DNA of 64,000 nucleotides. Origin: an uncultured Clostridia bacterium (GTDB taxonomy: Bacteria; Bacillota; Clostridia; Christensenellales; UBA1242). Shown here piece by piece: positions 3,001 through 61,563 of the stretch. Positions within the stretch are counted from its first letter, which is position 1; the number at the start of each line of letters is the position of its first letter. The notes under the pieces were generated by a model, which saw nothing but the letters and a program-made list of their open reading frames with translations, was not told the origin of the DNA and searched no databases. The DNA is taken from NCBI GenBank assembly GCA_944349515.1, contig CALVNE010000001.1, positions 87,232 through 151,231 on the forward strand, in the 5' to 3' direction. The position numbers and the translations under genes are program-made.

Positions 3001-3381
3001 TCCGACGATGTGACCGGGCGTGTTAGAACCTTCGAGGCAATCGTGAAGGGCGAACCGATATCCGAGCCGGGCATTCCAGAGTCCTTCAAAGTTTTGGTAA
3101 AAGAATTGCAAGCACTTGCGCTTGATGTGAAGATTTTAACCGAAAACGACGAGGAAATCGACTTGCCAGAACTCTCACAAGACGAACACGATAAACCTTC
3201 CATGGCTCAAGATGTTGAGAAAGACCTAAAGAACGTCACAATCGACCTAGACGAACTTATTAATAGTGACGGCGAGGAAGAAAAGAAGAGCGATATTGAA
3301 GAGGCTATCGACGAGCAAACGTCCACACAAGGCATTGATGATATTGATTTGTTCGATGATTTTGGGGACTTTGAAGAGTAA
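1..3381 (+). CDS. rpoB: DNA-directed RNA polymerase subunit beta (5' end lies outside the window)
   Basis: Frame 1 is open from nt 1 (DVVFLGDIPYMTDDCTFIINGVERVVV). RpoB hallmarks are present: GPGGIRKERA, NMQRQAVP, SGRYGNKGVVS, GGQRFGEMEVWALEAYGA. The C-terminal tail is acidic. Confidence 0.97.
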   Translation, partial: DVVFLGDIPYMTDDCTFIINGVERVVVNQIIKSPNYYLLRDKNQDNSTLVGQIIPKRGMYIEVKQGANEVLNIVLDRRNRITLGLFLKCFGYTADEISKLFGDHRLVKHVLEKETQQTQEEALLEFARKTRPADVPSAETTRNYLNLWFFSDQYYNLSRVGRYNLNKKLSIATRITGQVSAEDIVTEDGEILVRTGQEIDAETANKVKASGINEVWLQLPDKKYLVRGNNRVRLSDVFPCDEKELGILEEVYYPVLKQILKDNKSKEKRMQVIRERAKDLMITTLTMDDILASISMYLDVLEGIAKTDKIEHLSNKRIATCGELFYDHFRSGITKLVSNVRETLQGKELSEVTPRQIVNPKAVNRALRDFVATSQLSQFMDQVNPLSGITQKRRVSAVGPGGIRKERADAEVRDIHYTNYGRICPIETPEGQAIGLVNTMTSYAKINEYGFLETPYRKVDKETGKVSDKCEYYMADIEDTAYIAQATEPLDEEGRFVNKRVICRHKDYVVDVPARQVDFVDASPRQFISVATSLIPFLNSNEANRALMGANMQRQAVPLLRPESPVVGTGMEEVVARDSGYCTLAKNAGVVEYVSADEVRVKNNEGTVDIYPLTKFEKTNDETCINQKPCVKKGEKVKKGDVIIDGYSCENGELALGKNVLVGYMNWEGYNFEDAIIINERLVKDDVYTSICLKVEELKCRTTKLGDEQITRDIPNLGEEALKNLDENGIIRVGAEVRPGDILVGKVSPKGETELSPEERLLRAIFGEKAREVRDTSLRVQHGKGGIVVDVQVFSRKNKDELEPGVNELVKVFIAQKRKLSVGDKMSGRYGNKGVVSIVLPEADMPFMANGKPLDIVLNPLGVPARMNLGQVLEVHLGLVAGSLGWKVATPAFDGADVNSIKELLKENNFPEDGKAQLYDGRTGEPFDNKTTIGIKYMLKLNHMVDSKVHARSIGPYSLITQQPLGGKALFGGQRFGEMEVWALEAYGASHVLQEMLTVKSDDVTGRVRTFEAIVKGEPISEPGIPESFKVLVKELQALALDVKILTENDEEIDLPELSQDEHDKPSMAQDVEKDLKNVTIDLDELINSDGEEEKKSDIEEAIDEQTSTQGIDDIDLFDDFGDFEE

Positions 3382-4450: not shown

Positions 4451-7400
4451 ATGTTTGAACTTAATAACTTTGAAAAAATTAAAATTGGGCTTGCTTCGCC
4501 AGAGAAGATTAGAGAATGGTCTCATGGTGAGGTGACAAAGCCGGAAACTATCAACTATCGCACGCAAAAGCCAGAAAAGGACGGCTTGTTCTGCGAGAGA
4601 ATTTTCGGACCTAAGAAGGACTGGGAATGCCACTGCGGTAAGTATAAGAAAATTCGCTATCGTGGCGTTATCTGCGATAAGTGTGGCGTAGAGGTGACGC
4701 GTAGCAAGGTGCGCCGTGAAAGAATGGGGCATATTGAACTTGCTTGCCCAGTTACCCACCTTTGGTATTTCAGAACGGTGCCATCTCGCATTGGTATGCT
4801 TCTTGACCTTACTCCAAAAACCTTGGAGCAAGTGGTTTATTATATCAATTACATCGTAACAGACCCTAAATCTACCGACCTTGAATACAAACAAATTTTG
4901 AACGATAAAGAATATCGCGACGCCATTGAAAAATACGGTGCGGGCAGTTTTGAGGCTGGCATGGGCGCTGAGGCTATTAAGAAACTTCTTGGCGATGTTG
5001 ACCTTGAAAGAGAGGCGAAGGAGTTAAAAGAGGAACTTAAAAACTCTAAGGGTCAAAGAAAAATTAAGGCGGCTAAGAAACTTGATATCGTTGAGTCGTT
5101 TAGAAAGAGTGGAAACAACCCAACTTGGATGGTGCTTGATGTTATCCCTGTCCTTCCACCAGACCTTCGTCCTATGGTGCCACTCGACGGCGGAAGATAT
5201 GCCACAAGTGATTTGAACGACCTATACCGCAGAGTTATCAACAGAAATAACCGCTTGAAAAAACTTATCGAACTTGGCGCGCCAGATGTCATCTGCCGTA
5301 ACGAAAAAAGAATGCTTCAAGAGGCGGTTGACAATCTTATCGACAACGGTAAGCGCGGTAAGGCCGTTCAAGGCTCAAAGCAAAGAGATTTGAAGTCGCT
5401 TTCCGCTATGCTCAGCGGTAAGCAAGGGCGCTTCAGGCAAAACCTTCTTGGTAAGCGTGTCGACTACTCCGGCCGTTCGGTTATCGTGGTTGGACCAGAA
5501 CTTAAAATTTATCAGTGCGGACTTCCTAAAGAAATGGCACTTGAACTTTTCAAGCCTTTCATTATGAACAGACTTGTTGAAATGAATTTAACAAACAACA
5601 TCAAAACCGCAAAGCGCATGATTGAGCGCGAAAAACCGGTTGTTTGGGATATCCTTGCTGACGTCATAAAAGACCACCCAGTGCTTTTAAACCGCGCTCC
5701 GACTTTGCACCGTCTTTCTGTGCAAGCGTTCGAACCGGTGCTTGTTGAGGGCAAGGCGATAAAACTTCACCCGTCCGCGTGCGCCGCTTTCAACGCTGAC
5801 TTCGACGGCGACCAAATGCCTGTTCATATTCCACTTTCTATTGACGCTAGAACAGAGGCAAGAACTTTGATGCTTGCTTCGAATAACATCTTAAAACTTT
5901 CCGACGGCGAGGCGATTGTCAGCCCGTCGCAGGATATCGTGCTTGGCTGTTACTATTTGACTCTTGTGCGTCCGGGGGCTAAGGGCGAAGGGAGCATTTA
6001 TGCGTCTAGAAACGAGATGATTTATGCTTATCAAACCAAAAATCTTGACCTTCAAGCGGAGTGCACCGTTCGTCTTACCAAAACATATAATGGCAAGACC
6101 TACACCAAGCGCGTGACAACCACCGTGGGTAGGGTGCTATTTAACAACATTATTCCGCAAGACCTTGGCTATGTTGACAGAACAAAAGAGGAGAACATCT
6201 GCGAACTTGAAATCAACAAGCCGGTTATGAAGAATGAACTTAAAAACCTTGTCGGCGATGTATACGACAAGTTTGGCACCACCGCAACGGCGGAACTTGT
6301 TGATAACCTCAAAGAAATTGGATATAAATATTCCACACTCGCTTCTATCTCTGTCAACATTTATGACATAGAGGAGCCAAAAGAGAAAAAAGAGATTATG
6401 AAAGAGGCTGAGGACCAAGTACTTGAAAATGAAAAACTTTTGAACCGTGGTCTTATCACCTTGAACGAAAAATTGGATGCTAACATCGACATTTGGAAGC
6501 ATGCGGTTAATGAAGTACAAGATGCGGTTGTGAAGTCTCTCGACCAATTCAACCCATTTTCACTTATGGTGCTTTCTGGCGCGCGTGGTAACACAGTGCA
6601 GTTGAACAGTGACTGCGGTATGATTGGTATTAAATCAACGGCTTCCGGAACAAAGATTGACACACCTATCAAGTCCTCGTTTAGGCAAGGGCTTACTCCT
6701 ATTGAGTATTTCGTCAACTCTCGTGGTTCCAGAAAAGGTTTGTCCGACACGGCGCTTAAAACCGCTGACTCCGGTTATCTCACAAGAAGACTTGTTGATG
6801 TTGCGCAAGATGTTGTGATAACAAGTGAAGACTGCTTTGCAGAAACCGGCGAGAAGATTAAGGGCGTCACTGTCACTGACCTTGTAACCGACGGTTTCGT
6901 TCAAGAGACTTTGGCGGAGAGAATCTATGGCCGTGTTGCAGTTGAAGATATTGTAAACCCTAAGACGAAAGAGATTATCGTTCGCTCCAACGAGATGATA
7001 ACGAAAGAGCAAGCAAGTGCCATCACAAAGGCGGGCATTAAGGAAGTTCAAATCCGCTCGCTCATCACTTGCCGTTGCAAGCACGGCGTTTGTGCTAAGT
7101 GCTATGGCAGAAATATGGCTGGAAAGGATATTGTTTCGCTTGGTGAAGCGGTTGGTATCATTGCCGCTCAGTCTATCGGCGAACCGGGTACCCAACTTAC
7201 CATGAGAACCTTCCACACCGGTGGTTCCGCGGTGGCTGCCGACATCACTCAAGGTTTGCCGAGAGTTGAGGAAATCTTTGAGGCAAGAAAACCTAAGGGC
7301 GAGTGCTTGCTTTCCGAAGTGTCTGGTAAAGTTCATATCAGAGAGGACGCTAAAAATTACACCATTACCATTTTGACCGGCGAAGGCGACATTGATTACG

Positions 7401-9082: not shown

Positions 9083-10375
9083 CTACTTTTTATCCACCGG
9101 CACGATTACTTTCTTTCCACCCATGTATTTTTGAAGAACCTCTGGCACAAGCACGCTTCCGTCCGCTTGAAGGTTGTTTTCAAGTAATGCTATGAGTGCG
9201 CGGGTGGAGGCAAGCACGGTGTTATTGAGGGTGTGGGCGTAGTAGTTGCCCTTTTCGCCTTTCACTCTTATGCCAAGGCGCCTTGCCTGCGCGTCGCCAA
9301 GCGTGGAACAAGAGCCAACTTCAAAATACTTCCTTTGGCGCGGGCTCCAAGCCTCTACATCGCAACTTTTAACCTTCAAATCGGCTAAATCGCCACTGCA
9401 ACACTCCAGCGTGCGAACAGGTATGTTCATGTTGCGGAAAATTTCCACGGTGTAACTCCACATTTTGTTGTACCACTCCATGCTCTCTTCAGGCTTGCAG
9501 ATGACAATCATCTCTTGCTTTTCAAATTGGTGAACGCGATATATTCCGCGCTCCTCAATGCCGTGCGCTCCAACTTCCTTACGGAAACATGGACTGTATG
9601 AGGTCATAGTTATTGGCAATTCTTTTTCATTTATTATTTGATTTTTAAATTTGCCTATCATGCTATGTTCGCTTGTGCCGATTAAAAATAAGTCCTCTCC
9701 TTCAATCTTATACATCATGGCGTCCATCTCAGCAAAACTCATAACACCATTGACAACATCACTTCTAATCATAAATGGCGGTATGCAGTAGATAAAGCCC
9801 TTTTCAATCATATAGTCGCGGGCGTAGTTAATCATGGCGCTCACTAAGCGCGCCGGGTCACCCATGAGATAGTAAAAGCCATTACCGCTTGTTCTGCCCG
9901 CACTTTCCTTATCTAAACCATTAAATCTTTTCAATATGTCGGCGTGATATGGAATTTCAAAGTTTGGCACTTTCGGCTCGCCAAACCGCTCAATCTCCAC
10001 ATTTTCGCTGTCGTCCTTGCCGATTGGCACGCTCTTGTCGATGATGTTTGGAATGGTCATCATGATTTTTTTGATTTTTTCGCTGATAACCTCTTCTTCC
10101 TTTTCAATTTCGGCAATGCGTTCATTATTTTTCTTGACGGTTTCTTTAATTTTGTTTGCCTCGGTCACCTTTTTTTCGCGCATGAGTTTGCCTATTTGTT
10201 CGCTCAAACTGTTGCGGAAGGCGCGTAAGTTGTCGACCTCTTGTTTAAGGGCGCGGTTTTGCTTGTCTAAAGCCTCCACTTCGTCTACAAGTGGCAGTTT
10301 TTCATCTTGAAATTTCTTTTTGATATTCTCTTTCACAAGTTCTTTGTTTGTTCTAATAAGGTTTATGTCAATCAT
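9083..10375 (-). CDS. serS: Seryl-tRNA synthetase
   Basis: 430 aa with the N-terminal coiled-coil MIDINLIRTNKELVKENI and a class II core. The RBS is GAGGAG before the ATG. Confidence 0.93.
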   Translation of the reverse strand: MIDINLIRTNKELVKENIKKKFQDEKLPLVDEVEALDKQNRALKQEVDNLRAFRNSLSEQIGKLMREKKVTEANKIKETVKKNNERIAEIEKEEEVISEKIKKIMMTIPNIIDKSVPIGKDDSENVEIERFGEPKVPNFEIPYHADILKRFNGLDKESAGRTSGNGFYYLMGDPARLVSAMINYARDYMIEKGFIYCIPPFMIRSDVVNGVMSFAEMDAMMYKIEGEDLFLIGTSEHSMIGKFKNQIINEKELPITMTSYSPCFRKEVGAHGIEERGIYRVHQFEKQEMIVICKPEESMEWYNKMWSYTVEIFRNMNIPVRTLECCSGDLADLKVKSCDVEAWSPRQRKYFEVGSCSTLGDAQARRLGIRVKGEKGNYYAHTLNNTVLASTRALIALLENNLQADGSVLVPEVLQKYMGGKKVIVPVDKK

Positions 10376-55303: not shown

Positions 55304-55921
55304 ATGTTACTTTGGCTGGTAAGAATATTACTTTGGATACCGCTTTCCATTCTTCATCCAACATATATCTATGGAAGAAAAAATCGTCCTAAGGGTAAGG
55401 CGATACTATGTTCGAATCATCGTTCAAATTGGGACATTGTCAACTATCTTCTTCACACCAAGGAAAAGGTTGTGATTTTGGCAAAAAAAGAACTTGCAAA
55501 AAACAAGTTTTTCGGTTTTATCTTAAAGCATTTAGGAGCAATTTTCATCGACCGTGAGGGGAACGATATAAATGCAATTAAAGAGTGCATGAAGGCATTA
55601 AAGGCGGGCAAGAAACTGTTTATCTTTCCAGAAGGCACAAGGCTTAAAGACGAAAGTGCGGTTCTCGGCGAAGTGAAAAGCGGACTTGCGCTTATCGCCA
55701 TCAAAACAAAAACACCGATAGTTCCTATGTGGGTGGTGAGTAAGCCAAAAGCGTTTAGAAAATCAAAAATCATAATCGGCGAGCCTTATGAACTCTCTGA
55801 TTTCTACGGCAAAAAACTTGATGATATAGCACTTGAAGAAGCAAATGAGATAGTAAAGGACAAAATGCTCCAATTAAAATATGATTATGACAAAAAGTTG
55901 CAAACGAAGAAGAATAAATAA
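55304..55921 (+). CDS. plsC: 1-acyl-sn-glycerol-3-phosphate acyltransferase
   Basis: It has NHRSNWD (HxxxxD) and FPEGTR. Confidence 0.85.
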   Translation: MLLWLVRILLWIPLSILHPTYIYGRKNRPKGKAILCSNHRSNWDIVNYLLHTKEKVVILAKKELAKNKFFGFILKHLGAIFIDREGNDINAIKECMKALKAGKKLFIFPEGTRLKDESAVLGEVKSGLALIAIKTKTPIVPMWVVSKPKAFRKSKIIIGEPYELSDFYGKKLDDIALEEANEIVKDKMLQLKYDYDKKLQTKKNK

Positions 55922-55955
55922 GTTAAGAGTGAAAAGTGAAGAGTGAAAAGTTGAG
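55921..55955 (+). repeat. Five contiguous AGTGAAG-type heptads
   Basis: AGTTAAG AGTGAAA AGTGAAG AGTGAAA AGTTGAG, starting at the last base of the plsC stop codon. Confidence 0.8.
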
Positions 55956-55975
55956 GATAGTTTTTATCGATTATC

Positions 55976-56003
55976 AAAAAGATTAGGGCGACTTAATCTT
56001 TTT
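55976..56003 (+). terminator. plsC terminator (module copy 1)
   Basis: AAGATTA-gggcgact-TAATCTT followed by TTT. It is near-identical to 57508-57536. Confidence 0.7.
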
Positions 56004-56127
56004 ATCGTTTAGGCGGTTTGGTGGCAAATAAGATAGATTTAATTTCAATAAAAAGTGCAATGTAATTTTTTCGCAAAAAATAATGTAATGTATAGTTAAG
56101 GAATGGTGTAATGTTTACAAAAAAAGG

Positions 56128-56184: not shown

Positions 56185-57327
56185 ATGGAAAATTATATTG
56201 ATAACATAATAAAAGCGATAAGGCAAGATAGAAATGCGCAAGATAAACTTATCAACTATCTAAAATCAACCGGCGACACTGAGTTGTTTACCGATCTTTC
56301 TTCTTCCGGGAAAATGCTACTAGAAGTTGCAGCGGGAGAAAAACTGAAATTGTTCATTTTAGAGAATTATCCAGAACTTGCGCGGGTTCAAAATAAGAAG
56401 GGCAACACTATTTTGTTTGATACAACTGAGAAGGTGCACTGTAAGGCGCTAGAAGTGGACCCAAGCCTTGCGCGTATTCAAAATGAGGACGGTGAAACAT
56501 TTTTACATATATGTAATAGATTTTACATGGCGCCAAACATGGCACCAATTTTAGCCCTAGAAATTGACCCGACTCTTGCGCGGATACAGGATAAAAGAGG
56601 TAGAACGTTTGTTCATGGGTCTGATGCCGAAGTAATGCTTAAAGCGTTAGAGGTAGACCCAAGTCTTGCACGCATTCAGGATAATGACGGTCAAACATTT
56701 TTGTTTTTTTACAGTTTGTATAAACGCTCAAAAGATGTTGTACTTAAAGCATTAGAGGTGGACGCGAGCCTTGCGCAGATTAAGGATAACGACGGAGAAA
56801 CATTTTTGCACAACATCACAATCATAAAATATCCGCCGGTGGCAAGCGTGGATACTGCAATGGCTGTGCTAAAGGCATATCCAGAACTTGCAAGAATTAA
56901 AGACAGTGAAGGTAACACCTTTCTGCACTACGCGAATACTAGAAGTTTTGAAGATGTGATTGTGGAGGCACTAAAAATCGACCCAATCCTTGCGGAAATT
57001 CAAAATAAACAAGGCGACACATTTTTGCACACCTTCTTTGACGGGCCAGACATGTTTCAACTTCCTTACACTAAGTTATTGACAGCATTAAAATCTCACC
57101 CAAATCTTGCGCGAATTCAAAATGCGGACGGCGATACGTATTTGCATTATGCTGCCAAATTTGGGCATAAAAACATCAAGGAGTTTGCCGAAAGTTTGGA
57201 CCCGAGCCTTGCCGAAATTCGAAACGAAAACGGGCAAACATACCTTGATTTGTTCCCTAAAAAAAGTGTTGAAGAGTTAAAAATTTCCCTCGACGAAGTT
57301 TTGGATGAAAGAAGAAGAGAACTTTAA
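56185..57327 (+). CDS. Ankyrin-like repeat protein (~9 degenerate repeats)
   Basis: The recurrent unit is ALEVDPSLARIQ(D/N)xDG(E/Q)TFLH. This fits the ankyrin G-x-T-x-LH core. Confidence 0.7.
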   Translation: MENYIDNIIKAIRQDRNAQDKLINYLKSTGDTELFTDLSSSGKMLLEVAAGEKLKLFILENYPELARVQNKKGNTILFDTTEKVHCKALEVDPSLARIQNEDGETFLHICNRFYMAPNMAPILALEIDPTLARIQDKRGRTFVHGSDAEVMLKALEVDPSLARIQDNDGQTFLFFYSLYKRSKDVVLKALEVDASLAQIKDNDGETFLHNITIIKYPPVASVDTAMAVLKAYPELARIKDSEGNTFLHYANTRSFEDVIVEALKIDPILAEIQNKQGDTFLHTFFDGPDMFQLPYTKLLTALKSHPNLARIQNADGDTYLHYAAKFGHKNIKEFAESLDPSLAEIRNENGQTYLDLFPKKSVEELKISLDEVLDERRREL

Positions 57328-58692: not shown

Positions 58693-58820
58693 AATTTAGT
58701 GCGGACACCAACTACGCTTAACGCGGGTACGAAAAATAAATTTTCCTAATTGTTACTCAATTGTTTTAACAGCCCATAAGTTTGTATTGTTAACAAATTT
58801 AAAATTTATTTAAAATTTAG

Positions 58821-58849
58821 GTGACAAAAATTTGTTAGTTTGTTATAAT
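58821..58849 (+). promoter_or_regulatory. Promoter, GTGACA-17-TATAAT, driving the metK leader
   Basis: The box spacing is exact. Confidence 0.55.
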
Positions 58850-58856
58850 GTTAATA

Positions 58857-58982
58857 TATCCATAGAGAGTGTGCGAGGGACAGCCCCTTTGACCACACAG
58901 CAACCTACATTTTGCAAGGTGCTAATGGCTGACCGATGGTGCTTTAAAAATTTATTTAACCATCGGAAACGATGGTTTTTTC
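58857..58982 (+). promoter_or_regulatory. SAM-I (S-box) riboswitch with terminator
   Basis: The aptamer reads CCATAGAGAGTGTGCGAGGGACAGCCCCTTTGACCACACAGCAACC...AGGTGCTAATGG...CGATGG. The terminator AACCATCG-gaaa-CGATGGTT plus T-run lies at 58958-58981. It sits upstream of metK. Confidence 0.9.
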
Positions 58983-59105
58983 TTACTCTCTTTGGCTTAA
59001 AAGGAGGAGAGTATGTGGTGAAAAGAAGTATTAAATATACAAATTTGTGGTTTCAATAAAACTTACTTTGATAAATATATAAAATAATAAAAAGGAGAGA
59101 AAAAA

Positions 59106-60227
59106 ATGAAAAAGATAGTTACAAGTGAAAGTGTAAACATCGGGCATCCAGATAAAACCTGCGATTATATCGCCGATTGCTTTCTTGATGAGGCATTAAA
59201 GCAGGATAAATTTAGTCAAATGGCGGTGGAGTGCGCCATAAAAAACAACAAACTTTTCATATACGGCGAGGCGACAACCAGCGCAAAGTTAGACTATGAA
59301 AAGATTGCCTTAAAAGCACTTAGAGAAATTGGTTATAAGGAAGATTTTGAGATAATAAAAGAAATTAGCGAGCAAAGCGCGGAGTTAAACCGAGCGGTGG
59401 TCAAAGATAAACTTTGCGCCAACGACCAAGGCTTAGTGTTTGGATACGCCACAAATGAAACGCCGGAGTTTATGCCTCTGCCAATTATGGTAGCACATAA
59501 GTTGATGATGAACTATGATGAATTTAGGCGTAAAGATGAAAATTTCTTTTTTGATGCAAAAAGTCAAGTTTCAGTTTTATATGAAGATGATAAGCCTAAG
59601 TATATCACAAACATCTTAGTAAGTGTGTCACATAGCGAAGATATTTCAAACGAAGAGATTTGTAAAAGAATATTAGAAAATGTCGTTTTAAAAACACTTG
59701 CAGAATATGAAAATTATTATAACGATAAAACTAAGATTATGATAAATCCAAGTGGTAGATTTACTATATATGGAAGCTACGGCGATTCGGGTTGCGTGGG
59801 CAGAAAGATTGTTGTGGATAGTTACGGCGGAGTGGCGCGTGTTGGAGGCGGGTGTTTCTCTTCTAAAAATGCCACCAAAGTGGATAGAAGTGGGGCATAT
59901 TATGCACGATACGTGGCAAAAAATATTGTGGCGAATAATCTTGCTGAACGTTGCGAGGTGGAAGCGGACTATGCGATTGGGCTTGAGAATGCACTCAATA
60001 TCAACATTGACTGCTTTGGAACGAACAAATTGCCAATGGAAGAGATTTATGAGATTGTGAAAAGTAATTTTGATTTTTCCCTTCAAAATATCATAACAGA
60101 ACTTGACCTTTTAAAGCCAATTTATAAAAATACGGCATGCTTTGGGCATTTTGGAAGGGAAGAATTTAGTTGGGAGAAGGTTAAGGCGAACCTTCGGTTC
60201 GCAGTGAAGCAAACGCAAAGCGTTTGA
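59106..60227 (+). CDS. metK: S-adenosylmethionine synthetase (divergent, 373 aa)
   Basis: It has SESVNIGHPDKTCD, NDQGLVFGYA, GRKIVVDSYGG and KVDRSGAYYARY. Its last ~15 codons overlap the hairpin array. Confidence 0.9.
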   Translation: MKKIVTSESVNIGHPDKTCDYIADCFLDEALKQDKFSQMAVECAIKNNKLFIYGEATTSAKLDYEKIALKALREIGYKEDFEIIKEISEQSAELNRAVVKDKLCANDQGLVFGYATNETPEFMPLPIMVAHKLMMNYDEFRRKDENFFFDAKSQVSVLYEDDKPKYITNILVSVSHSEDISNEEICKRILENVVLKTLAEYENYYNDKTKIMINPSGRFTIYGSYGDSGCVGRKIVVDSYGGVARVGGGCFSSKNATKVDRSGAYYARYVAKNIVANNLAERCEVEADYAIGLENALNINIDCFGTNKLPMEEIYEIVKSNFDFSLQNIITELDLLKPIYKNTACFGHFGREEFSWEKVKANLRFAVKQTQSV

Positions 60228-60330
60228 GTGAAGGGAAGGCGGAGCCTTCCAGTGAAGGAGCACTAAAGTGTTCAGTGAAGAGAAATCTTGCGATTTCTAG
60301 TGAAGGCAAACCTTGCGGTTTGCAGTTGTG
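60178..60330 (+). repeat. Array of six unrelated 7-bp-stem hairpins separated by the invariant heptamer AGTGAAG
   Basis: The hairpins lie at 60186-60202, 60210-60226, 60234-60250, 60258-60273, 60281-60298 and 60306-60323. AGTGAAG starts at 60203, 60227, 60251, 60274 and 60299. Confidence 0.9.
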
Positions 60331-60344
60331 GAAAATTTTAAAGA

Positions 60345-60366
60345 CAAACGCTAGCCCGTTTTTTTC
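60345..60366 (+). terminator. Weak candidate metK terminator
   Basis: AAACG-ctagcc-CGTTT followed by T-run. The stem is only 5 bp. Confidence 0.3.
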
Positions 60367-60457
60367 CTTCACTCTTCACTCTTCACTTTCTAAATTTATC
60401 AAAAACTCTTCACTGCGAGCCAATGGCTCGCCTTCACTTTATTCTCTTCACTTTTTT
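60367..60457 (-). repeat. Six AGTGAAG heptads in inverted orientation (CTTCACT on +), one flanked hairpin
   Basis: CTTCACT starts at 60367, 60374, 60381, 60408, 60432 and 60446. The hairpin GCGAGCC-aat-GGCTCGC lies at 60415-60431. The last heptad is followed by T6. Confidence 0.85.
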
Positions 60458-60558
60458 AGTTAAGTTAAAGAAATATATTGATTTCTTTGACTTATTTTTT
60501 TATATTTGTTAAAATATTTTTGCAAGGATTTGCAAAATCTTTTATTTTGGAGAGAAAT

Positions 60559-61563
60559 ATGAAAGTTGTTGTGGACGCTTTTGGTGGCGATAATGCTCCT
60601 AAGGAAGTGGTGGAAGGCGCCATTATGGCGGTAAATCAAAATAAAGGCCTCACCGTTGTTTTAACCGGCGACGAGAAGAAGATTAAAGAGGTTTTAAACA
60701 GCAGAAATGAGCGTATTGAAATTGTGCACTCAAGCGAGGTCATCACAAATGACGACACGCCGACGGTTGCGATAAGGCAGAAGAAGGACTCTTCGCTTGT
60801 TAAGGCGTTTGACCTTTTGAAAGAAGATAAGGATGTTATCGGGCTGGTGTCTGCGGGTAGCACGGGCGCCATACTTTCTGGCGCAATTATGAAGATAGGG
60901 CGCATTAAGGGCATATCGCGCCCAGCACTTGGACCTATTCTTCCAACTAAAAAGGGAAGCGATGTGATAATTATCGACAGCGGTGCGAATGTTGACTGCA
61001 AGAGCATAAACCTACTCCACTTTGCCATTATGGGCAGCGCGTATTACTCGATTGTGGAAGGTGTGGAGCATCCGCGCATTGCGCTACTCAACAACGGAAC
61101 GGAAGAGCATAAGGGCAACGAACTTGTGAAAGAAACCTACCCTCTTATGAAGAAACTGCCGATAAACTTTGTTGGCAATGTGGAAGGCAAGGAAGTTATG
61201 TCTGGCAATGTCGATGTTATAGTCACTGACGGCTTTGCTGGAAATGCGCTTTTGAAAGGTGTGGAGGGCACTGCAAGCGCGATTCTTTCGGTATTAAAAA
61301 GTGAGATAAAATCTAGACCTATGTCTATGATAGGCGCGCTTTTCATGAAAAAGACTTTTAAATCACTTAAAACCAAACTTGACGCCAACAAGCACGGCGG
61401 TGCACCATTCTTGGGCGTTAAAAAACTTATTGTGAAGAACCACGGCTCATGCGGTCGCGACAATATACTAGCGTCTATCAATCAGGTTGTCAAACTTCAT
61501 GAAAACAACCTTATTGAAAAAATTGAAAAGATGATTGGAGATATGAACATTGAAGAAAATTGA
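60559..61563 (+). CDS. plsX: Phosphate acyltransferase PlsX
   Basis: It starts MKVVVDAFGGDNAP after the RBS GGAGAG. The track's upstream extension is spurious. Confidence 0.92.
   Translation: MKVVVDAFGGDNAPKEVVEGAIMAVNQNKGLTVVLTGDEKKIKEVLNSRNERIEIVHSSEVITNDDTPTVAIRQKKDSSLVKAFDLLKEDKDVIGLVSAGSTGAILSGAIMKIGRIKGISRPALGPILPTKKGSDVIIIDSGANVDCKSINLLHFAIMGSAYYSIVEGVEHPRIALLNNGTEEHKGNELVKETYPLMKKLPINFVGNVEGKEVMSGNVDVIVTDGFAGNALLKGVEGTASAILSVLKSEIKSRPMSMIGALFMKKTFKSLKTKLDANKHGGAPFLGVKKLIVKNHGSCGRDNILASINQVVKLHENNLIEKIEKMIGDMNIEEN

Follow-up and report, generated by a model that had tools for sequence, protein, structure and literature searches.

The Gut-1 motif was described as a 77-nt, three-hairpin small RNA (sRNA) of unknown function, known only from human-gut metagenomes, and was considered by its discoverers to be certainly an RNA (Weinberg et al. 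2010, PMC2864571). Here we describe an array of variable hairpins and a conserved 7-nt linker, AGTGAAG (the heptad), that lies between the genes metK and plsX in a 64,000-nt stretch of DNA (the window) from an uncultured Clostridia bacterium. By its structural grammar, the family to which this array belongs is a distant relative of the Gut-1 RNA motif. Literature searches with the Gut-1 name and accession returned only the original 2010 description, and those on the heptad and on tandem-hairpin repeats in Ruminococcaceae returned nothing relevant.

Repetitive extragenic palindromic (REP) sequences, bacterial interspersed mosaic elements (BIMEs) and REP doublets forming hairpins (REPINs), known from Enterobacteria and Pseudomonas, are short extragenic palindromic units that lie mostly 3′ of genes, cluster in direct and inverted orientation with linker motifs, and vary in mosaic composition between strains; mRNA 3′-end stabilization and termination are among the side effects of REP and BIME units. 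BOX elements of Streptococcus pneumoniae are dispersed and intergenic, with end modules, variable internal repeats and complementary ends. The reading we favor, to which we give about an even chance, is that the element between metK and plsX is a clade-specific, dispersed, modular palindromic repeat of the REP/BIME or BOX kind, which here would supply a hairpin-rich 3′ untranslated region (UTR) and probably the terminator. Its modules are the 7-nt AGTGAAG linker, short GC hairpins of a common repertoire, the inner end motif AGTTGTGGAA, a purine-rich outer end and inverted copies, and the composite found here consists of two inverted arms, forward (F) and inverted (R), around a variable center. 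Our predictions for this element draw on sequence comparison and folding, using genome fragments of 7–64 kb per genome.

A modular repeat between metK and plsX

Exact heptads number 20 in the window; dinucleotide shuffles give 6.4 ± 2.4 (maximum 14; none of 100 reaches 20). Of the 20, 11 are packed into 250 bp between metK and plsX (Table 1). This clustering of heptads and hairpins is far beyond chance. The F array carries five exact heptads, flanked by the degenerate copies GGTTAAG (60179) and AGTTGTG (60324), and its six hairpins of 6–7 bp, perfect or near-perfect, all differ in sequence. The closing motif AGTTGTGGAAAA also ends arrays in the relatives L060 (twice) and L241, with a variant form in L079 and at window position 55949, and its inverse, CCACAACT, stands before R arrays in L060 and L079. 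Thirty nucleotides, a weak hairpin included, separate the closed F array from the R array, in which three tandem CTTCACT are followed by a 20-nt AT spacer, CTTCACT, the hairpin GCGAGCCaatGGCTCGC, CTTCACT, ttattct and a last CTTCACT; the arm terminates in CTTCACTTTTTT, and the R array is identical in sequence in a second sample, L001. The six CTTCACT, the GC hairpin, the spacer, the T6 and the weak hairpin with its T run had all been listed in a preliminary description of this DNA, and each was recovered in place. A second, hairpin-less copy directly follows the stop codon of an acyltransferase gene.

Three short-read contigs assembled independently from other samples (L001, L242 and L243) all begin inside the R arm just 5′ of plsX, and because of these shared starting points the heptad arrays are suggested to break short-read assemblies.

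Comparison within the genus reveals rapid turnover of the repeat. In the window and the two relatives L240 and L241, PlsX is 91–95% identical at the amino acid level and 83–87% at the nucleotide level. L240 has the riboswitch and metK, and its metK–plsX interval is free of arrays; L241 lacks metK and has only an R arm at the orthologous place upstream of plsX, reading CCACAGTT CTTCACT GAACGCCaacGGCGTTC CTTCACT TTTCACT CTTAC T7, with a hairpin (GAACGCCaacGGCGTTC) different from that of the window. A further R arm in L241 lies between two genes that in the window stand 112 nt apart with no array. The array at the acyltransferase gene is present in all three genomes and differs by whole units, with no insert in the window, one of 10 nt in L241 (7728–7765) and two hairpins in L240 (1300–1370). 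The module GCGAGCC-RTT-GGCTCGC is common to the R arm of the window, an R arm of L241 at a different locus and an F arm of L060. Copies or fragments occur at two loci in the 64 kb of the window, at least five in 16 kb of L241 and two in 8 kb of L060, and about 100 kb from more distant relatives (PlsX 84–88%) contain no arrays. Because L240 has no array here, L241 has only an R arm and modules recur at unrelated sites, the arrays are, on this comparison, not a metK-specific regulator; they are a dispersed, rapidly reshuffled repeat, missing here in a species of the same genus. Turnover of the element is at the DNA level, by gain and loss of units exactly at heptads, plausibly through slippage or recombination between 7-nt direct repeats; whole modules would move between sites, and selection would keep each hairpin paired.

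L241 also contains a repeat of about 170 nt, 'X', at least three times in 16 kb (23–127, 6800–6980 and 9580–9790). It comprises an 18-bp stem capped by GGGCaaaGCCC, then a degenerate purine-rich F-like stretch and GTTGTGAGAAAA. The repeat stands before R or F arrays, and both L241 R arms have one upstream; it is missing from the window and has no match in Rfam.

The element has also altered a coding sequence. The Pfam domain S-AdoMet_synt_C of MetK stops at residue 358 of 373, and the final ~15 codons (VKANLRFAVKQTQSV) and the TGA stop fall within the F array. Homology between the metK genes of the window and L240 breaks directly past ...FSWEK and returns about 20 nt before the plsX promoter region, a stretch that is kept in L240 and L241 whereas the heptad element is not. 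As read from this alignment, the element has replaced the native end of metK and the adjoining spacer, and encodes the last 15 residues of MetK together with its stop. An exact-protein database look-up found no record of the window MetK, as expected with a repeat-encoded tail.

These arrays share with REP/BIME repeats all of the organizational traits listed above, including mosaic clusters: F-only, R-only and F+R composites occur, with unit insertions and deletions at orthologous sites. The units here, however, are much shorter (17 nt), with diverse stems within one array around an invariant 7-nt linker; the hosts are Firmicutes, and no REP-associated tyrosine transposase (RAYT) was identified near the arrays. 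The likeness to BOX lies in modularity, in mutually complementary ends that give a long transcript fold, and in dispersed intergenic placement. BOX modules, by contrast, are 45–60 nt long and conserved in sequence, lack hypervariable hairpins between 7-nt linkers and show no sequence similarity to the present arrays.

Table 1 Coordinates of the element and of surrounding features in the window
Feature	Position	Strand	Remarks
Second, hairpin-less copy	55921–55960	+	AGTTAAG, AGTGAAA, AGTGAAG, AGTGAAA, then AGTTGAGGATAG
Terminator after second copy	55976–56005	+	
SAM (S-adenosylmethionine) riboswitch (S-box) leader of metK	58857–58942	+	Rfam RF00162, 49.3 bits, above gathering score
Terminator-like hairpin 3′ of metK riboswitch	58958–58977	+	Terminator scan
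metK open reading frame (ORF)	59106–60227	+	Stop TGA 60225–60227
Degenerate outer heptad GGTTAAG, left edge of element	60179–60185	+	Outer ends of other copies: AGTAAG or AGTTAAG
F array	60186–60323	+	Six hairpins and five exact AGTGAAG; local-only folding recovers every hairpin
F-array hairpins	60186–60202, 60210–60226, 60234–60250, 60258–60273, 60281–60298, 60306–60323	+	
Exact AGTGAAG in F array	60203, 60227, 60251, 60274, 60299	+	
Degenerate heptad AGTTGTG, right flank of F array	60324	+	
Inner terminal motif AGTTGTGGAAAA, closing F arrays in the clade	60324–60335	+	Recurrence in relatives
Weak 5-bp hairpin AAACG/CGTTT	60346–60361	+	Then T run to 60365
R array	60367–60452	+	CTTCACT at 60367, 60374, 60381 (tandem), 60408, 60432, 60446
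R-array GC hairpin GCGAGCC-aat-GGCTCGC (GCGAGCCaatGGCTCGC)	60415–60431	+	
Probable intrinsic terminator of metK transcript	60415–60458	+	7-bp stem with 6 GC pairs, then CUUCACUUUAUUCUCUUCACU and U6
R-array spacer ttattct	60439–60445	+	
T6 after final CTTCACT	60453–60458	+	
plsX promoter-like site TTGACT-17-TAAAAT	60487–60515	+	Beyond the 3′ end of the element; also kept in L240 and L241
plsX	From 60559	+	Beyond the element

Pairing constraints, folding and termination

The hairpin units are under a pairing constraint. Pairing reaches 97.6% in twelve 17-nt units from the window clade, with changes on both sides in six of seven pairs; their covariation score of 0.773 compares with 0.236 in shuffles (none of 500 reaches 0.773), and a shift of the partner by one column makes the pairing collapse. 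The 766 stem pairs counted in the window and 40 loci (137 hairpins) comprise 754 Watson–Crick, 7 G.T and 5 A.C pairs, so the stems lack an RNA-type tolerance of G.U, and an attempt to assign the strand from G.U wobble was abandoned for want of any asymmetry. The loops are strongly polar. Read in the GTGAAG sense, TTC occurs 22 times and GAA never, TAC 10 times against one GTA, and TGC 9 times against one GCA, and this holds for units in either orientation. A re-tabulation restricted to Watson–Crick pairs (125 hairpins) gives 81 triloops, and a 5′C-G3′ closing pair in 93. Loops that read C(TNC)G in the heptad sense are therefore C(GNA)G on the CTTCAC strand, and C(GNA)G is a very stable DNA mini-hairpin loop.

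Such features would also suit a single-stranded DNA (ssDNA) element, in which hairpin plus heptad form the site of an HUH/RAYT-like or other ssDNA-binding enzyme that mobilizes or reshuffles units, in parallel with REPINs or the ends of IS200/IS605. The near-equality of G.T and A.C pairs, the C(GNA)G loops on the CTTCAC strand for units of both orientations, the precise gain and loss of hairpins between heptads and the REPIN-like inverted doublet are consistent with this analogy. No Y1/HUH gene, however, adjoins any of the 40 arrays examined, and, within a single genome, REPs vary far less in sequence than these hairpins do. We consider a dedicated ssDNA element improbable, although it would be compatible with a REP/BIME- or BOX-like repeat as its mobility mechanism.

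Since the heptads are mostly split by hairpins of 16–20 bp with covarying stems, the arrays point to a single-stranded structure rather than a contiguous double-stranded operator. The preliminary description had compared the direct-then-inverted layout, which is real and recurs across the family, with the sites of ribbon-helix-helix (RHH) repressors and centromere-binding proteins. Like the omega operators and parS of pSM19035, the arrays hold 7-bp repeats in both direct and inverted orientation with a partial TCAC core (the omega heptad consensus is WATCACW, with which CTTCACT has TCAC(T) in common), and contiguous heptads do occur, three at 60367–60387 and four to five at 55921–55955. Yet only 3 of the 11 heptads here are contiguous, whereas omega sites are contiguous, lie in plasmid promoters and stand beside omega/delta genes. 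The present copies are mostly interrupted by hairpins, chromosomal and multiple. The genes whose 3′ ends they occupy are unrelated, and close relatives differ in them; this one begins inside metK and ends upstream of the plsX −35 box. Its neighbors are metK, plsX and rnc, with no RHH, ParA or other partition gene adjacent, and no plasmid or phage matches were obtained. A double-stranded operator or centromere bound by an omega-, ParG- or CopG-like protein is thus extremely improbable.

We then folded positions 60178–60459 as a single RNA. The minimum free energy is −108.1 kcal/mol, against −67.6 kcal/mol when pairs are limited to a 30-nt span, which puts the contribution of pairing between the arms (a zipper) at about −40 kcal/mol in the predicted fold, and folding z-scores are −7.7 for the + strand and −9.2 for the − strand. 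The predicted rungs have probabilities of 0.99 (F1-R4), 0.79 (F2-R3) and 0.60 (F3-R2), with R1 shared by F4 and F5; related composites likewise fold as rods when computed. The heptad-to-heptad pairing proposed earlier is therefore strongly favored in silico if one transcript spans both halves, but the last two CUUCACU, including the one adjacent to U6, stay outside the zipper in the predicted ensemble, and so the proposed giant terminator closed next to U6 is not predicted. Heptad pairing is, in the model, thermodynamically available; its use is a separate matter.

That this pairing is the function of the element, with both arms in one RNA forming a rod of stacked multi-way junctions with protruding hairpins, is a possibility we rate as unlikely. 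Such a rod would terminate or insulate transcription very strongly, perhaps in both directions, or would give a 3′ end resistant to RNase III or exonucleases. Besides the predicted energy gain, rung probabilities and z-scores, inverted arms in the window, L060, L079, L241 (twice, with a degenerate purine-rich F arm) and about 23 distant loci among the matches listed (see below) are consistent with it, as are the GUGAUAU linkers in the published Gut-1 seeds, which are matched by AUAUCAC in the inverted arm, and the Watson–Crick-only stems, expected if the structure is needed on both strands. Matching linkers in the two arms are, however, equally expected from inverted duplication. Lone F arrays occur at window 55921, in L240, L241 and L060 and at many Christensenella-type loci, and F and R heptads differ in number and in spacing (five against six here, four to five against three elsewhere). 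The unpaired heptad beside U6 and the weak terminator between the arms also argue against it. Under the REP/BIME- or BOX-like reading, AGUGAAG/CUUCACU pairing would follow from the inverted-arm design, is predicted on thermodynamic grounds and may strengthen the end structure.

The GC hairpin of the R arm with its U-rich tail (60415–60458) probably terminates metK transcription. Our scan picked out no other terminator-like site 3′ of metK, and the tail of this hairpin (CUUCACUUUA) satisfies the rule of 5 T in 8; the U6 sits 21 nt downstream. Because the scan finds 5 sites in 5.5 kb against 4.2 expected, a single match is weak evidence. R arrays in the clade always precede a T-rich tract. The weak hairpin and T run at 60346–60365, missed by the scan, may act as a leaky terminator. 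As part of the metK mRNA, the F arm would give a 3′ UTR of six independent hairpins, and any transcript that passes the weak hairpin would stop short of the plsX promoter, at the GC hairpin of the R arm with the U-rich tail behind it.

Gene setting of the element

On Rfam evidence, the real regulator of metK is the S-box leader. The riboswitch–metK cassette (window 58700–60230) is itself an indel among species within one genus: the window and L240 have it between plsX and an S1-domain gene, and L241 (9542–10001) lacks it. In more distant relatives (L244–L249), rpmF directly precedes plsX.

Between the plsX promoter and start codon, tttttgcaaggatttgcaaaatctttt (60516–60545) contains two TTGCAAA-type repeats. 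This stretch is fully conserved in the window, L240 and L241, and the sequence upstream of it is not; the repeats may be an operator for the control of fatty-acid or phospholipid genes. Clusters of TTGCAAA are also found 3′ of rnc in L244 and L246. An ORF at 56185–57327 matches the Pfam ankyrin-repeat families Ank_2, Ank_4 and Ank_5 and, over a short stretch close to its C terminus, TPR_11. This is unusual for a bacterium, and the surroundings of the ORF are otherwise housekeeping genes.

The wider family and its relation to Gut-1

To place the element, we scanned one genome per species (185,579 species) with the pattern AGTGAAG-N15-19-AGTGAAG-N15-19-AGTGAAG. At least 119 loci match, against about 7 expected by chance on our own estimate, and most are coding or simple tandem repeats. 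Among the matches listed, about 40 arrays have the same grammar, nearly all in metagenome-assembled genomes of gut or rumen Clostridia, including Oscillospiraceae, Acutalibacteraceae, Christensenella, Scatosoma, Faecousia and Ruminococcus. Their repeat is GTGAAG, usually TT, and a variable GC hairpin, three to five times over. About 23 among the matches listed continue into an inverted array, made of three rounds of hairpin, AA and CTTCAC, with one more hairpin behind it.

Three arrays of the Oscillospiraceae type exceed the gathering score of 50 bits for Gut-1 (RF01706), namely L087 (57.4 bits), L044 (54.2) and L119 (52.3), and the match in L087 extends to both arms, each read in its GUGAAG sense. 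Five further loci of other types (L003, L024, L055, L016 and L006) score below threshold, at 26–44 bits. Window positions 60100–60560 give no Gut-1 match even at E ≤ 10, nor do the closest relatives L060 and L079; in the window and 24 related loci, the Rfam scan returned only Gut-1 (in distant relatives), the SAM riboswitch, tRNA, tmRNA and T-box. The window copy nevertheless shares the defining structure of Gut-1, at least three tandem covarying hairpins with a conserved GUGAAAU-like linker. The purine-rich linker is GUGAAAU, GUGAUAU or GUGAAGU in Gut-1 and AGUGAAG here; hosts in both cases are uncultured gut Clostridia, and an inverted downstream array occurs in the seed flanks and at the threshold-passing loci. 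Unlike Gut-1, the window hairpins abut the heptad with no UU spacer and have uniform stems of about 7 bp, and the copy has its own end motif, lies in a gene 3′ end and is hypervariable among species of one genus. The flanks of the published seed alignment already contain the GUGAUAU-linker variant followed by an inverted AUAUCAC array, and convergent layout and lineage-specific linkers are therefore traits of the family. The original description mentions neither the inverted composite architecture nor the dispersed nature of the arrays.

In the Oscillospiraceae type, the sequence that follows the final forward heptad (TTAAGTTTGCCC, or AAGTGTTCCGC in another subfamily) is complementary to a far-end segment (GGGCAAACTTAG or GCGGAACACTT), with covariation of the two from one subfamily to another. 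Every array is intergenic, and most lie 3′ of a gene running in the same direction or between two convergent genes. When ORFs around 40 arrays were clustered all against all, no protein family occurred in more than four loci; one adjoining family, a 23S-rRNA-intervening-sequence four-helix-bundle protein, has true members only in L003 and L019.

The genes of this family (PF05635; L003 237–596, L019 516–869) begin at a distance of 15–190 nt and are oriented divergently to the forward arm of the array. On the other side of the array stands a tRNA in L003 and a tmRNA in L019, sharing a bidirectional terminator, and the layout of array, terminator and convergent tRNA is also seen in L041, L074, L075, L095 and L100. 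L030 carries two direct composite copies of about 155 nt (495–681 and 3094–3280) around a 2.4-kb segment of small genes, and a further copy lies in L069 (5315–5507). Each of these copies follows a shared conserved sequence of about 70 nt, in which a −35/−10-like pair ends about 7 nt before the first GTGAAG, and their terminal long hairpins differ by many compensatory changes.

The kinship with Gut-1 raises the possibility of a Gut-1-like sRNA or 3′-UTR-derived RNA whose single-stranded AGUGAAG linkers titrate an RNA-binding protein, by analogy with the CsrB/RsmZ type of sponge. Beyond the shared grammar and the certainty its discoverers attached to Gut-1 as an RNA, the invariant linkers and covarying stems fit this proposal, as do the mostly mRNA-sense placement 3′ of genes and the −10-like boxes upstream and terminator hairpins downstream of Oscillospiraceae-type copies. 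We know of no candidate protein. The window copy itself escapes the Gut-1 model, its unit number shifts freely among close relatives, down to no hairpins at all at 55921, and the lack of any G.U excess in 766 stem pairs is not what a selected RNA usually shows. The CUUCACU copies, being complementary and on the same transcript, would mask the linkers as well, and a protein sponge is decidedly improbable as an account of this element.

Other identities were considered and set aside. A phage or plasmid origin is rejected: none of 119 viral-contig matches to the three-heptad pattern is of the hairpin type, a viral match to AGTGAAGAGTTGTGGAA is a coding-region coincidence, and BLAST gave no matches for the window element in plasmids, or for the L087 element in plasmids or phages. 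A coding repeat is rejected because periods of 23, 24 and 25 break the reading frame. Clustered regularly interspaced short palindromic repeats (CRISPR) have repeats of at least 23 nt and unique spacers, whereas the conserved part here is 7 nt and the 'spacers' are palindromic; type III toxin–antitoxin systems have near-identical 30–45-nt repeats and a toxin gene, whereas the gene downstream of this 7-nt repeat is plsX. Against MetJ-type metboxes stand the phylum and the SAM riboswitch of metK. Integron attC sites carry a similar motif, GTTRRRY, but the end motif GTTRRRG fails to match it at the last position, and the defining features of 6S RNA and retron non-coding RNA are absent. The outer ends are inverted, as in a miniature inverted-repeat transposable element (AGTAAGAGTGAAG and CTTCACTCTTACT in L079), but copies are only about 72% alike and have no target-site duplication in the window, L060 or L079.

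Several points weigh against a dispersed REP/BIME- or BOX-like repeat. With no transposase or RAYT around the arrays and no target-site duplication at those three loci, mobility is inferred from distribution only, and copy number is judged from 7–64 kb per genome. Oscillospiraceae-type arrays keep their unit order, often stand beside a tRNA terminator and have −10-like boxes upstream; they look more like a genuine sRNA gene than junk, and the superfamily, the window copy included, may have a dedicated RNA function. The strictly polar C(TNC)G loops imply a strand-specific constraint that a purely selfish model leaves unexplained.

A bolder reading, which we regard as quite unlikely, is that heptad and hairpin arrays, Gut-1 included, form a widespread, hitherto undescribed class of prokaryotic element with an invariant 7-nt linker for recognition or pairing, in which the two inverted arms zip through their linkers into a rod of stacked junctions that acts as a bidirectional insulator or terminator of transcription, or as the ssDNA substrate of a dedicated unit-shuffling enzyme. 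If so, hairpins would be free to change as long as they stay Watson–Crick paired with a C(GNA)G-type loop on one strand, and Gut-1 would be one arm of an element rather than a free-standing sRNA.

Four aspects appear to be new: Gut-1-like arrays usually consist of two inverted arms, their linkers are lineage-specific, they can be dispersed and hypervariable, and their stems are Watson–Crick-only with polar C(TNC)G / C(GNA)G loops. For annotation, the MetK tail and stop codon serve as a warning that arrays of this kind can overwrite the 3′ ends of genes; they can also break short-read assemblies. Gut-1 has been an orphan motif since 2010, and Gut-1-like arrays are now seen in many Clostridia lineages poor in cultured genomes. 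The question of what Gut-1 is thereby becomes concrete: RNA or ssDNA, zipper or free linkers, and terminator activity.

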